Part shown: positions 11,066-15,830 of the stretch, piece after piece | How the letters are laid out: every line of letters begins with the position of its first letter | How positions within the stretch are numbered: the first letter of the stretch is position 1 | Source of the DNA: Yuukianura sp. NJ FZ-2021 | Taxonomy: Eukaryota | Assembly: GCA_046563655.1 (NCBI GenBank) | Contig: CM102287.1 | Coordinates: forward strand, 5,828,001-5,892,000 | Length of the DNA stretch: 64,000 nt | Direction of reading: 5' to 3' | Made by a program: the position numbers and the translations under genes | The notes under the pieces: generated by a model | Seen by the model: only the letters and a program-made list of their open reading frames with translations | Told to the model about the DNA's origin: nothing | The model's database searches: none

Positions 11066-11324
11066 AGAAGAAGATAAGAGGAGTCCGGTCCGCGGTATCG
11101 TTGTAACTGTGAGTGATTGCGCTAAGGGTACTCTGGATCAAACACAATTTTTTTCCAGTCTCGAGTAATATATAGTAATACATTAATTTCCTATGATTCG
11201 GCAGGAGTAAGGCAGAGGTGGTACGTGTTAATACTCCATATCCCATCCCGTATCCCGTTCAATGCTTTGCGCCGCGATGTTGCCGTTTCATTTTGCTATA
11301 GGGGAGTAGGAGGGGGATGTGGGA

Positions 11325-11580
11325 TATCCCATATCCCACCCCATATCCCATATCCCATCCCATATCCCATCCCATATCCCATCCCATATCCCATCCCATA
11401 TCCCATCCCATATCCCATCCCATATCCCATCCCATATCCCATCCCATATCCCATATCCCATCCCATATCCCATATCCCATCCCATATCCCATCCCATATC
11501 CCATCCCATATCCCATCCCATATCCCATCCCATATCCCATCCCATATCCCATCCCATATCCCATCCCATATCCCATCCCC
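11325..11580 (+). repeat. Tandem array (ATCCCATATCCC)n in the left TIR, about 20 units with a few 7-bp variants
   Basis: Read directly. It produces the spurious IPYP/HIPS/SHPI ORFs. Confidence 0.95.
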
Positions 11581-11630
11581 AAAAAATTCCCTATATAAGG
11601 AGCCGCGGAGCTCAGTTTCGGTGACTTACC
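11581..11630 (+). promoter_or_regulatory. Putative TATA-containing promoter block at the inner end of the left TIR (identical inverted copy at about 13731-13780)
   Basis: AAAAAATTCCCTATATAAGGAGCCGCGGAGCTCAGTTTCGGTGACTTACC contains TATATAA and an Inr-like TCAGTT. It ends about 45-55 nt before the ATG of each internal ORF. TATA-to-Inr spacing is shorter than canonical. Confidence 0.55.
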
Positions 11631-11674
11631 CGTTCATTAGGGACGGGAAAAGACCTGCACTGGGGAATAGGGGG

Positions 11675-12706
11675 ATGGAGGCATCAAGGATGCCAGCGCT
11701 TGCGCTTACTGCTGAGCAAACAACGGCCCTTTTAAGGGCCAACCCATTCGGTCTCATGACCTTTGCGAGGGTGGTTAGAAACCCCGCAGAAGCGTTCAGT
11801 TTTGCCGTCCACACGGGTTTAATTAATATTAAAAACCCTCCAACATGCTCGTGTGGACGGACAAAATGCCTCGCCTCACGCCCAGGCGCCAGGTATGAAT
11901 GGTTTTGCCGGAAGGAACCAGGTGTTGAATGGTGCAGAATTCGAGTGGGTTTGCAGGTCAACACCTGGTTCCACGGGGCGAAAATACCTGTCCTGACGGT
12001 CCTGGAGTTGACGCTTCACTGGTTTTTTCAGGTACCGGTGACGGCAGCGGCTGGCCAGCTTGGCGTTTCTAAAGAATGCGCCATTGACTGGTACGCCTAC
12101 TGCCGTCAAATATGTTTCAGCATCGTTTCCAGGCTCGATATCTGCATCGGCGGGCCTGGACTCGTTGTTGAAATAGATGAAAGCCACTTGTGGAACCGCA
12201 AATACCACCGAGGAAGAGCCCTTGCCAACGAACAACTCTGGGTTTTTGGTGGTATTTGTCGAGAAACCAAGGAGGCTTTCATCCAGCTGGTACCTGATAG
12301 AACCACCAAGACGTTGGACCCCATCATCCAACGAAAAATTGCGGCCGGTACTCATATCATGAGTGACGGTGCGCGAGTCTACGAAAACCTTCATCTACCG
12401 TCTCGGGGTGGTTACACTCACAACCAGGTGAACCACTCCGAACATTACGTTGATCCCACAGACTCAAATATTCATACCAACAGCATCGAGAGTCTGTGGA
12501 ATCAACTTAAAAAAAAGGTGAAGGGATTCGTAGACGATGACCACATCGTCCTCTACATCGCCGAATATTTGTACCGGCGGCAATTTTTAAACGTCCACAG
12601 TGACGCTGAACGAAGGACCCAGGGAATCCAATTTGAAATATTTCTCAATCACATTCGAGAAGTATTCCCTGGGCCCTTCCAAGAAGGTTTATTGATGGAC
12701 GTTTAA
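11675..12706 (+). CDS. Merlin/IS1595-family DDE transposase, 343 aa (true start most likely MEASRMP at 11675)
   Basis: N-terminal zinc ribbon (CSCG...WFC...WC). Catalytic motifs VVEIDESHL, IMSDG and HTNSIESLW, plus VNHS and YIAEYLYRR, typical of ISXO2/IS1595-like transposases. No stops. Confidence 0.93.
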   Translation: MEASRMPALALTAEQTTALLRANPFGLMTFARVVRNPAEAFSFAVHTGLINIKNPPTCSCGRTKCLASRPGARYEWFCRKEPGVEWCRIRVGLQVNTWFHGAKIPVLTVLELTLHWFFQVPVTAAAGQLGVSKECAIDWYAYCRQICFSIVSRLDICIGGPGLVVEIDESHLWNRKYHRGRALANEQLWVFGGICRETKEAFIQLVPDRTTKTLDPIIQRKIAAGTHIMSDGARVYENLHLPSRGGYTHNQVNHSEHYVDPTDSNIHTNSIESLWNQLKKKVKGFVDDDHIVLYIAEYLYRRQFLNVHSDAERRTQGIQFEIFLNHIREVFPGPFQEGLLMDV

Positions 12707-13206
12707 ACGAAATTTAAAAAGTAAAACAAAAAAACATAAAAAAAACATAAAAAAAAACAAAAAAACCAAAAAAAAAAACAAAAAACAAAAAAACAAAAAA
12801 AAAACAAGAAAAAACAAAAAAAAAAACAAGAAAAAACAAAAAAAAAGAAAAAAAACAAAACAAAAAACAAAACAAAAAAAAACAAAAGAAAACAAAAAAA
12901 AACAATAAAAACACAAAAACGGTGTGTATAGCTTCCCGCGCCGAAGGCGCGGTGTTAGGTTTGGTTAAAGTGCGCAATACAGATTACATCCCGGGGCATT
13001 TTTTGTTTTTTTTTGTTTTTTTTAATTTTTTTTAGTTTTTTTTTTTGTTTTTTTTTGTTTTTTTTTTTGTTTTTTTTTTGTTTTTTTTTGTTTTTTTTGT
13101 TTTTCTTTGTTTTTCTTTGTTTTTTTTTGTTTTTTTTTTGTTTTTTTGTTTTTTTGTTTTTTTTTGTTTTTTTTGTTTTTTCCTTGTTTTTTTTTGTTTT
13201 TTTTTA
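12707..13206. repeat. Inverted pair of low-complexity tracts: A-rich (AnC)n at 12707-12919 and T-rich (TnG)n at 12999-13206, around an 80-bp core
   Basis: Read directly. The core contains the hairpin CCGCGCC-GAA-GGCGCGG (12936-12952). Confidence 0.9.
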
Positions 13207-13213
13207 CTGTTTA

Positions 13214-13678
13214 CTAACTCTTGTGAATTTTTTTCAGGTGCTTCCCAAGGTTGTCAGGCCATCTACCGTCAAACGTGGCGACACATTTGGGGCATTTGAG
13301 CCGCTCCAAGGGCGGGTCATGTTGTGCCCTGACATGGGCATACTTTTTTTTGTAGGTTGGGAACTCCAACCTACAATGCGGGCAAGGGAAAACCTTTGCC
13401 TTGGCAGTGGTGGTGGCATTTGGCGCCGGGACAACGGGGGGACTGGGAGGAGGGACTTCCTCCTCTTCGCCCACGGCGAAATACCCGGCTTCCACCGTCA
13501 CCCACTTCCCCACTTCCTTCTCTTCCCCCCCTTCGCCACATTGCGGGCACAGGAAATTTAGGGGTGGGGTGTGGGCGACGATGCAGAGAGGGTGAGCGAG
13601 GTGGCCTTCGCAACCCTCCCGTTTCAGCCGGGCAATCGCTCCAGCAATAGGTTGGAGACAACCAGCGCAGCTCGGCAT
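13214..13678 (-). CDS. Transposon-borne RING-H2 plus two C2H2 zinc finger protein, 154 aa
   Basis: CAGC-x15-CEGHLAHPLC-x11-CPQC fits C3H2C3 RING-H2 spacing. An acidic/Pro linker follows, then FPCPHCRLEFPTYKKKYAHVRAQH and LKCPKCVATFDGRWPDNLGKHLKKIH (C2H2). ATG at 13678. Confidence 0.85.
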   Translation of the reverse strand: MPSCAGCLQPIAGAIARLKREGCEGHLAHPLCIVAHTPPLNFLCPQCGEGGEEKEVGKWVTVEAGYFAVGEEEEVPPPSPPVVPAPNATTTAKAKVFPCPHCRLEFPTYKKKYAHVRAQHDPPLERLKCPKCVATFDGRWPDNLGKHLKKIHKS

Positions 13679-13780
13679 TTTTTTTTGGGGGCCTACCAAG
13701 AAAACGGTCTTTTCCTTTCTCTAATAGAAAGGTAAGTCACCGAAACTGAGCTCCGCGGCTCCTTATATAGGGAATTTTTT

Positions 13781-14097
13781 GGGGATGGGATATGGGATGG
13801 GATATGGGATGGGATATGGGATGGGATATGGGATGGGATATGGGATGGGATATGGGATGGGATATGGGATGGGATATGGGATGGGATATGGGATGGGATA
13901 TGGGATGGGATATGGGATGGGATATGGGATGGGATATGGGATGGGATATGGGATGGGATATGGGATGGGATATGGGATGGGATATGGGATGGGATATGGG
14001 ATGGGATATGGGATGGGATATGGGATGGGATATGGGATGGGATATGGGATGGGATATGGGATGGGATATGGGATATGGGGTGGGATATGGGATATCC
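13781..14097 (-). repeat. Tandem array (GGGATGGGATAT)n in the right TIR, about 24 units
   Basis: Read directly. Inverted counterpart of 11325-11580. Confidence 0.95.
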
Positions 14098-14250
14098 CAC
14101 ATCCCCCTCCTACTCCCCTATAGCAAAATGAAACGGCAACATCGCGGCGCAAAGCATTGAACGGGATACGGGATGGGATATGGAGTATTAACACGTACCA
14201 CCTCTGCCTTACTCCACCCTATGATTCTTTTCAAGCTGTTTGCCAACAAG

Positions 14251-15830
14251 ATGTCAAATACAGAAGGTCCTGGAGAAACTCCAGGTGAACCTGCACGCGT
14301 ACCTCAGAAGAAGCCCCGACAAATGAGAACAGAACTGGATCGTTTACTGATGGACGAAGGTACTGTAAATATGCTGTGCGATCGTGATGCAACTGTAAAC
14401 GCCGGAACAGCTAAGCAAAATTCGAATGGCAATGGCGTCAATAACAAGAAAAAGAAATTAGAAGAACTTGACCGCAGACGATTGCAAGTTCTTAGCACGG
14501 TACGAAATCAGAGTAGCGACACAGTTAAAAAATTACGTGAAAAGAAGAAACCAGAGGTCAAGCCAGCCAGACGAAGGTCCTCGGAAGAAGGATACGCAAA
14601 TGGAAATGTCCCAAAAGGGTCCCCTGTGGCTTGGTGCAAGGGACGTCGTGCCAGTCTTCTTGCAACTTTGAAGGAAGATCGAAATGGAACTGGAGATACA
14701 AATGGAAAAGGAGCAGAATCCATAGAAGGTAGTTCTAGCGTGACGCTAGCGCTGACGCGAGCGAATTTTAATTTTTCGTTTTTCGAATCCGTACAGGCCC
14801 GCCAGAACAGAAGCAAATTTTGTCAAATGTGACAAGGGATGGTTTGGGTCATGTCACAATTACGTTTCAGTCGAATGGAAGACACACTATAGATTTAAAG
14901 GTATTTAATTTCCGTATTCGCCAACCTCACTTAATTAACTACATTAACTTTTTTTATCGTTTTGCACAGGCCTTAAGGGACCTTACTAGTACATTACAAG
15001 CACTGGGATCTGACCCAAGAGTCAAAGTCATTTTAGTTTCCAGTTCTGGAAACTCTAAATTCTGCAACGGTCTTGACCTCCGAGAACTGATTGGCACAAC
15101 TGATGACAAGAAGCAAGCGGCCGATGACATTGCTGAAGCTATCAAGTAAAGTGAAATGCTTTCTGATGTTAATCATGAAGTGTCACCATTTGATCTAGTA
15201 ATTGGAATTAACGTAATCGTACTTTGTTTGCTTTAGCTTGTACCTCACCACATTAGCTGAGCTGCCTAAACTCACGATAATCTCACTCCACTCCTCGGTC
15301 TCAAATTTATTTGTGACAAGCTTGCCGTTATTCGATCTCATTTACGCTTCTGACAAATCCACTTTCCGGTGCAACTATTTAACAACTCTAAACCAAGTTC
15401 CAGAAGGCGGGACGCTTCTATACGAAAAGCTTGGACCAGTTGCCTTCAATAATCTCGTTTATGGAGGGAAGGTACTCACTGCTAACGAAGCGAAGGAGTG
15501 CGGTCTGGTGAGTGAAGTACTTTGGCCAGCACGTTACCAAGAGGAACTTGTTAACCGAGTCAACAGTTTCCTAGGACGCAAAGTAAGTCCAATTTTACAT
15601 CCTATAATTAAGTAAATTTAACAATAACATCCGAAAGTACGTACAGCGTTCTTCTTACTTTGCAGTTGTCGAATAGTTTCCCTATGACGAAGTCCTCAAT
15701 TCCACGTCTCAAATGCCTTTCGGAACAGAATTTGAAAGAAGCAAAGAAGGATCTAGTAAACTCTTGGATCAGTGAAGATTTTCAAAATGCTGCAAGGAAC
15801 TTCGTCAATTCTCGTGTAATTCGAAACTAA
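14251..15830 (+). CDS. Chromodomain-Y-like (CDYL-type) crotonase/enoyl-CoA hydratase-fold protein; exons about 14251-14728, 14797-14900, 14971-15145, 15237-15582, 15666-15830
   Basis: Crotonase-like segments KVILVSSSGNSKFCNGLDL, LPLFDLIYASDKSTF, QVPEGG and LTANEAKECGLVSEVLWP, joined by GT-AG introns. No chromodomain is visible. Confidence 0.8.

Follow-up and report, generated by a model that had tools for sequence, protein, structure and literature searches.

We analysed a 64-kb stretch of contig CM102287.1 from Yuukianura sp. NJ FZ-2021 (hereafter the window), in which a 3,019-bp DNA transposon of the Merlin type occupies positions 11200-14218. The element holds two genes that point towards each other: a transposase gene read inwards from the left arm, and a second open reading frame (ORF2) read inwards from the right arm, whose product carries a series of zinc-ligand motifs. 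The initial annotation of this DNA had described a 9-bp target site duplication (TSD), near-identical long terminal inverted repeats (TIRs) and two intact, intronless, convergent open reading frames (ORFs), and every one of these items is present, with small corrections to the coordinates (Table 1). The two TSD copies match each other perfectly. The claim that both halves of the element follow one plan is borne out as well, since arrays, TATATAAG, ATG, ORF and A-rich tail recur in each: from the outside inwards, a half consists of the terminus, an array of 12-bp repeats, the TATATAAG block, a 5' hairpin, the ATG, the ORF with an (A8-10C)n tail behind it, and lastly a poly(A) signal.

In the inverted-repeat search the TIR arms come out as two segments, one of 263 nt (98% complementarity) and one of 201 nt (95%). 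When the two arms are aligned to each other, they are identical from the 5th base through GGTGACTTACC, and the number of array units alone differs. The extreme tips are unequal: the left one reads GGCAGGAG and the right one, as reverse complement, GGTGGAG, with GG at the start of both. The array unit is the 12-bp ATCCCATATCCC in both arms; it is repeated 19.4 times with 94% matches in the left array and 24.4 times with 100% matches in the right one. A 24-nt word taken from the TIR has just two sites in the 64-kb window, namely the two arms, with 0 expected from 100 shuffles, and the same 24-mer has no match among viral and prokaryote contigs. At the outer edges of the arrays (11315-11340 and 14079-14104) the array motif turns over in a perfect 10-bp palindrome, GGGATATCCC, which has no further site in the window.

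The transposase places the element. Its sole significant Pfam family is PF12762 (DDE_Tnp_IS1595; E 9.4e-21, 74.8 bits, cut-off 27). A word-indexed protein search returned 305 relatives at E <=0.001, the best at 59% identity; among those with a name, the nearest come from the springtail Orchesella cincta, where they are called "putative transposase-like proteins", with full-length P0010 and P0013 at 50-51%. In an end-to-end alignment with 14 relatives of 46-59% identity, D168, D231 and E272 are invariant across all 15 sequences, and we take these residues as the putative DDE catalytic triad. In the tree, the transposase falls into a clade of 16 rows together with Orchesella cincta proteins (support 100/99). 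The Merlin superfamily goes back to Feschotte 2004, as cited in PMC8101967, and is related to IS1016/IS1595; the parts of PMC8101967 covered here give as its marks a DDE_Tnp_IS1595 transposase, TSDs of 8-9 bp, TIRs that start with GG and, in several families, internal tandem repeats, and quote a TIR length range of 24-462 bp. The element in the window combines the DDE_Tnp_IS1595 domain with a 9-bp TSD, GG termini and internal tandem repeats, and the first three of these uphold the Merlin identity that the initial annotation had proposed. It almost certainly belongs to the superfamily; its TIRs, at 456 and 513 bp, lie at or above the range quoted in that part of the survey.

Table 1. Features of the Merlin element and its flanks (window coordinates).
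Feature	Position	Strand	Basis or detail
Left TSD	11191-11199	.	CTATGATTC, 9-mer abutting the left terminus
Left TIR, 456 bp	11200-11655	+	inverted-repeat search, arm-to-arm alignment, Tandem Repeats Finder
Left TIR subparts	unique terminal part 11200-11344; 12-bp array 11345-11579; promoter-like part and leader 11580-11655	+	
TATATAAG block, left arm	11592-11599	+	read from the sequence; 83 nt before the transposase ATG at 11675
Leader hairpin, left arm	11629-11647	+	7-bp stem CCCGTTC/GGACGGG, loop ATTAG; in minimum-energy and centroid folds
Merlin transposase gene, 343 aa, uninterrupted	11675-12706	+	PF12762; putative catalytic D168, D231, E272
Transposase 3' tail, (A8-10C)n	12707-12919	+	AATAAA at 12904-12909
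Unique centre between the tails, 79 bp	12920-12998	.	G+C hairpin at 12936-12952
ORF2 3' tail, (A8-10C)n	12999-13213	-	ATTAAA at 13026-13021
ORF2, 154 aa, uninterrupted, convergent to the transposase	13214-13678	-	zinc-ligand pattern, Pfam C2H2 matches, relative P0156
Right TIR, 513 bp	13706-14218	-	inverted-repeat search, arm-to-arm alignment, tandem-repeat search
Right TIR subparts	leader and promoter-like part 13706-13781; 12-bp array 13782-14074; unique terminal part 14075-14218	-	terminal part ends CTCCACC
Leader hairpin, right arm	13714-13732	-	7-bp stem CCUUUCU/AGAAAGG, loop AUUAG
TATATAAG block, right arm	13762-13769	-	91 nt before the ORF2 ATG at 13678; same in both arms
Right TSD	14219-14227	.	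CTATGATTC, 9-mer abutting the right terminus

The second gene starts within the TIR-derived leader, with its ATG 28 nt past the TIR edge. Its predicted protein opens with eight ligands in a C3H2C3, RING-H2-like order (C4, C7, C23, H26, H29, C32, C44 and C47), continues through a linker rich in acidic residues and proline, and closes with two C2H2 fingers (C99, C102, H115, H120 and C129, C132, H147, H152). The ligand consensus of RING-H2 domains is C-x2-C-x(9-39)-C-x(1-3)-H-x(2-3)-H-x2-C-x(4-48)-C-x2-C, and the N-terminus of ORF2 fits this regular expression. Two Pfam families match the protein, both barely above their cut-offs: zf-Di19 (28.8 bits, cut-off 27.5) and zf-C2H2_4 (27.7 bits, cut-off 27). 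A HMMER search with ORF2 against 1.84 billion representative proteins gave 56 matches, and nearly all of them are generic C2H2 proteins, as judged by the matched stretches and seven sequences that were read. The sole full-length relative among the 56 is P0156, a protein of 169 aa that aligns to ORF2 residues 3-136 at 27% identity (BLASTP E 3e-11). All eight N-terminal ligands stand in invariant columns of this alignment with the same spacing, and P0156 likewise has a low-complexity linker and two C2H2 fingers; the contigs from which it comes are at most 1,142 bp long. Against solved structures, a profile of ORF2 and P0156 found tandem C2H2 chains (best E 1.3e-12). A further candidate, P0150, which matches ORF2 residues 21-69, was rejected as a relative because it is a translated tandem repeat.

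We considered whether ORF2 might be a non-coding open frame that arose by chance in a G+C-richer spacer. Its near lack of relatives, the absence of a Pfam family well above cut-off (best 28.8 against 27.5 bits) and a poor AlphaFold2 model, with a mean predicted local distance difference test (pLDDT) of 53, would all be expected of such a frame. But mononucleotide shuffling of 13206-13705 gave an ATG-initiated ORF of at least 154 aa just 5 times in 2,000 trials, the 16 zinc ligands are canonically spaced, and P0156 repeats the whole layout; on these three grounds we consider ORF2 probably a real gene, and a chance frame very improbable. Finger 1, the one part of the model predicted with confidence (pLDDT 79-84), also appears to fold, which speaks against a chance frame as well. 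The G+C content per codon position runs parallel in ORF2 and the transposase and is lowest at position 2 in both.

The mirrored construction extends to the sequences around both genes. In each arm TATATAAG is followed by TCAGTT, an initiator-like word that lies at 11612-11617 (+) in the left arm. Since the arms are identical up to GGTGACTTACC, both ATGs lie downstream of the same TATATAAG, at 83 and 91 nt; we take the block for a putative promoter. Past GGTGACTTACC the arms can be aligned for 25 nt more, with 7 mismatches. These are the only differences across the 44 positions of the inner leaders, and all 7 fall in the stem of a leader hairpin whose pairing is kept in both arms: between the arms there are three compensatory pair changes and one change from G-U to C-G. 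When 7 substitutions were placed at random over the 44 nt, all pairs were kept with at least three compensatory changes in 1 of 300,000 trials; with placement confined to the hairpin, the count was 111 of 300,000. A looser test that asked for kept pairs only was passed by 12% of placements over the 44 nt and by 0.6% inside the hairpin. The case for the hairpin rests on this covariation, because leaders and centre alike have unremarkable fold energies by themselves (z -0.4 to -0.6); a shuffle control on structure pairs gave 52 of 500 and is uninformative with two rows. We take the pattern to reflect selection, either for a hairpin in the two leaders or, at the DNA level, for a cruciform. The pattern also suggests that the two cassettes have existed side by side for long enough that the hairpin could diverge between them, with the outer 430-odd bp kept identical.

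At their 3' ends, both genes run into tails of like composition. The A-rich stretch behind the transposase (12723-12919) holds 168 A and 22 C in 197 nt, and that behind ORF2 (12999-13205), counted on the + strand, holds 181 T and 19 G in 207 nt. Together the tails form a low-complexity inverted repeat (arms of ~200 nt, 75-78%) around the short unique centre. Within this centre, between the two poly(A) signals, a perfect 7-bp stem (CCGCGCC-GAA-GGCGCGG) is legible on both strands, and the overall fold energy of the central segment is not unusual (z -0.47). A search of Rfam gave sub-threshold matches only, and a search for tRNA genes gave none. One of the sub-threshold matches lies within transposase codons 16-30 (11720-11765, +), where the histone 3' stem-loop RF00032 scores 26.3 bits against a gathering threshold of 34 (E 1.9e-4), probably by chance.

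Halves built this much alike could also have arisen by fusion. Two related elements, or half-elements, might have been joined tail to tail, for example by aberrant gap repair or template switching; an autonomous Merlin half would then adjoin half of a non-autonomous relative with a different gene, and the symmetry would reflect the origin of the element and not a two-component system. The inverted tails around a short unique centre suit such a junction, as do the unequal TIR tips (CA against T) and the inner leaders, which differ at 7 of 44 positions next to an identical outer part. We nonetheless hold a fusion to be quite unlikely: the outer 430-odd bp are identical apart from array length, which would not be expected of independent elements unless they were later homogenised, and no other junction was seen among the contigs. 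A fusion origin would be no argument against present function, and it is compatible with ORF2 as either a partner or a passenger.

On balance, and with modest confidence, we interpret the locus as an intact, probably autonomous and fairly young Merlin insertion with a two-gene layout like that of maize MuDR. Recent activity would fit the perfect TSD, the near-identical TIRs and the intact ORFs. In the mechanism that we propose, the 12-bp subterminal arrays and the terminal 144 bp of the TIRs would be candidate binding sites for proteins of the element. Inside of the array, each TIR would provide a putative TATA-type promoter and a short leader with the conserved hairpin. From these like signals transcription would run inwards and converge, with the transposase expressed from the left arm and ORF2 from the right arm, and the two transcripts would stop at separate poly(A) signals past the (A8-10C)n tails, on either side of the 79-bp centre. 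The ORF2 product would be a small zinc protein in which two C2H2 fingers follow a RING-H2-like cross-brace pattern, and would serve as an accessory or regulatory factor adapted to the element; its fingers would most likely bind nucleic acid and its N-terminal module a protein partner. Whether ORF2 is in fact adapted to the element is, in our judgement, evenly balanced, and we think it unlikely that transposition requires it. A bolder version, which we regard as rather doubtful, would make this the first lineage of Merlin elements in which a second component is obligate. Here the C2H2 fingers would read the arrays, and the RING-like module would have one of two roles, bridging the ends and recruiting the transposase, or targeting a host factor as a ubiquitin ligase; the two genes would be co-expressed in step from identical TIR promoters under control of the covarying hairpin, and concerted evolution would keep the arms identical. 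The bridging and recruiting role in this version is modelled on En/Spm TnpA and on the Harbinger Myb protein.

Several results weigh against ORF2 as a regular component of such elements, and against the RING-H2 half of its description. ORF2 relatives are very rare: a word search of 5.8 billion proteins found none, a profile search for ORF2 returned P0156 and nothing else, and ORF2 profile scans of metagenome and viral contigs detected no relative. Pfam RING families gave no match to the whole of ORF2 at E up to 1; with the E limit raised to 10, the N-terminal parts of ORF2 and P0156 (60 or 61 aa) gave none either. No RING chain occurs among the PDB sequence matches of ORF2, and the AlphaFold2 model, computed from a two-row alignment, reaches a pLDDT of 45-54 over residues 1-50. 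Language-model look-alikes of residues 1-66 fell into RING-clan clusters in 10 of 10 named matches (top score 0.90), a likeness that we treat as a lead only. Of the RING-H2/C2H2 protein that the initial annotation had proposed, the ligand spacing and the C2H2 profile matches held up, and no RING profile match was found; "RING-H2" is here the name of a ligand pattern, not an established family membership. A predicted complex of transposase, ORF2 and zinc scored 0.00 without control runs and is taken here neither for nor against.

The survey of copies and related loci adds to these points. No second TIR, transposase or ORF2 lies inside the 64-kb window, so that a single copy was seen, and the contigs of one sample show a single version. 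Scanning with the transposase alignment gave 378 matching stretches, of which 140 encode relatives, and 80 were kept for the ORF2 search. None of these 80 related-transposase loci yielded an ORF2 relative by tblastn (best E 0.55), by hidden Markov model (best E 0.44) or by ligand patterns, although most of the contigs are shorter than 2 kb and too short for two genes. Among the 37 related loci of at least 2.5 kb, 18 have an exact inverted repeat of at least 18 nt around the transposase (~15 distinct loci, as some are twin assemblies), and none of these 18 has a second convergent ORF of at least 90 aa. In 3 of the 18, a same-strand ORF lies directly upstream and resembles the transposase's own N-terminal exon. 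A single C2H2 ORF was found, in L055, on the same strand as the transposase match and 5' of it, outside the recognised inverted repeat. A further comparison is L003 (1-3205), a metagenome contig of at least 3.2 kb with a Merlin relative whose 365-aa transposase is 42% identical: of the same size as the window element and with long TIRs as well (at least 305 nt, built from ~160-bp tandem units), it has 1.37 kb of ORF-free DNA at the place equivalent to ORF2.

Two further loci bear on the arrays. L001 (40-190) and L002 (400-740), the nearest full-length relatives at 56% identity, have short tandem arrays right before the transposase ATG, with units of 13-15 bp and 15-18 bp that are unlike those of the window element. 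Because both carry arrays, these are a trait of the subfamily, with or without ORF2. The transposase fragment of highest identity, L078 (1-1965), matches residues 190-307 at 68%; rearranged and frame-shifted, it is otherwise uninformative, but as a remnant it indicates that decayed copies of the subfamily exist in its sample. L078 also contains an internal inverted duplication of 102 nt.

Five DNA runs, four of them from one sample, and no RNA run were listed as containing the region, and sequencing reads were compared with 13206-13781. Runs X1 and X2 cover this segment without differences and show no variant letters in ORF2 (one sample); X3 and X5, from organism B, do not cover it, which proves nothing. 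In the X1 and X2 contigs the inner TIR continues in two ways only, into the transposase or into ORF2, a picture that fits one copy or several identical copies. Mean word depth is higher in the transposase-side contig than in the ORF2-side contigs (22.6 against 13.9; 31.2 against 4.6-5.7), and a shared 81-nt piece of the TIR has depths of 28.3 and 19.1 (X1, X2). The gap could hint at copies without ORF2 or could be noise; depth is no copy number.

These observations bring up the chief alternative, that of a passenger gene: one copy or one lineage would have captured ORF2 from the host, as a zinc-finger gene or as a retrocopy, in the manner of Pack-MULE transduplication (MULE, Mutator-like element), and ORF2 would be expressed accidentally from the TIR promoter and be of no use to the element. 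A single copy was seen and none of the related Merlin loci that were fetched carries ORF2; C2H2 fingers abound in host proteins, and generic C2H2 proteins make up most of the 56 ORF2 matches; and an intronless gene with an A-rich tail resembles a retrocopy. The tail, however, is not special to ORF2, as the transposase has an equal (A8-10C)n tail, and no close host parent turned up among either the 5.8 billion or the 1.84 billion proteins, where the sole full-length relative is only 27% identical. ORF2 moreover fills its cassette exactly, from an ATG 28 nt past the TIR to an ATTAAA of its own, and the divergence of its leader hairpin by compensatory changes points to a second cassette that was kept for long and not to a fresh accident. 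We consider a passenger unlikely. The initial annotation had called ORF2 an integral partner rather than a passive fragment; the TIR-derived leader, the tail with its own ATTAAA and the relative P0156 sustain that view, and the absence of ORF2 from the 80 related loci does not.

Returning to the favoured MuDR-like reading, we asked how the element compares with known systems. No Merlin element with a separate, non-overlapping second gene was found described in a full-text literature search that left Repbase, Dfam, the supplements of PMC8101967 and Feschotte 2004 outside its scope, in keeping with the initial annotation, which knew of no description of this architecture for Merlin. The 2021 survey PMC8101967, in the parts covered, describes Merlin elements with a transposase gene only; the sole second ORF that it reports there is overlapping and antisense, judged by its authors to be chance, and some of its transposases carry a fused C-terminal ZZ finger. 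Compared with the superfamily so described, the window element adds a convergent, non-overlapping second gene, with the expression signals duplicated for it.

The closest parallel is maize MuDR, which, according to the covered part of PMC3310237, has long TIRs that contain transposase-binding sites and promoters, and two convergent genes transcribed inwards, one for the transposase and one for a lineage-restricted helper. The window element likewise has two convergent genes between long TIRs, a likeness in working and not in membership: its transposase is IS1595-like where that of MuDR is MURA/IS256-like, so that it does not class as a MURA-type (MULE) element, and the TSD length differs. The helper gene mudrB is known only from Zea, and we know of no zinc-finger layout in MURB like that of ORF2. 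Accessory DNA-binding proteins beside a catalytic transposase also occur in PIF/Harbinger and En/Spm (CACTA) elements, and the En/Spm protein TnpA binds 12-bp subterminal repeats. Those accessory proteins are Myb/SANT-like or TnpA and not zinc fingers, however; gene order and expression differ, and the elements lack mirrored cassettes.

RAG1L-RAG2L transposons (TransibSU / ProtoRAG) and Chapaev resemble the window element in having two genes between TIRs, and RING and C2H2 modules in element proteins. As of 2015, RING fingers were known from no transposable elements beyond Chapaev and RAG1-like ones, according to the covered part of PMC4411706. These elements belong to a different superfamily; in them the transposase itself carries the RING and its partner is of the Kelch-PHD type, and ORF2 is RING-like in its ligand pattern. 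The C-terminal cysteine-rich domain of the piggyBac transposase is described in the covered part of PMC5861402 as a cross-brace zinc module that binds transposon-end DNA sequence-specifically. Since this module binds DNA, a cross-brace module such as that suggested for ORF2 need not be a ubiquitin ligase. The piggyBac module is part of the transposase, in contrast to the separate gene ORF2, and the likeness drawn here concerns the kind of module.

The surroundings of the element fit an arthropod host. Between 28067 and 38409, several ORFs on both strands match PF16972, the TipE sodium-channel auxiliary subunits (E 6e-44, 8e-22 and 1.4e-06), in what looks like a TipE-like gene cluster as in insects. 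On the right, an ORF that begins MSNTEGPGE (14251-14832) starts 24 nt past the TSD and has no Pfam match; just left of the element, 11110-11160 contains GTGAGT and a polypyrimidine-AG stretch. Judged by these sequence signals, the element may sit in a 5' untranslated exon of a host gene.

What is new at this locus is a Merlin element that combines a mirror-built, MuDR-like two-gene layout with a rare zinc protein; the layout as such was already known from MuDR. If Merlin has indeed built a MuDR-like system, in which two convergent genes sit on duplicated cassettes of promoter, leader and terminator, then transposon architecture would have evolved convergently in different superfamilies. ORF2 would then represent a new kind of element-encoded zinc protein, with two members visible among billions of proteins. 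The covarying leader hairpin points to a post-transcriptional or structural control common to both genes. To our knowledge, Merlin transposition has not been dissected biochemically; should the copy described here be active, it would lend itself well to such work, being compact and having defined ends.

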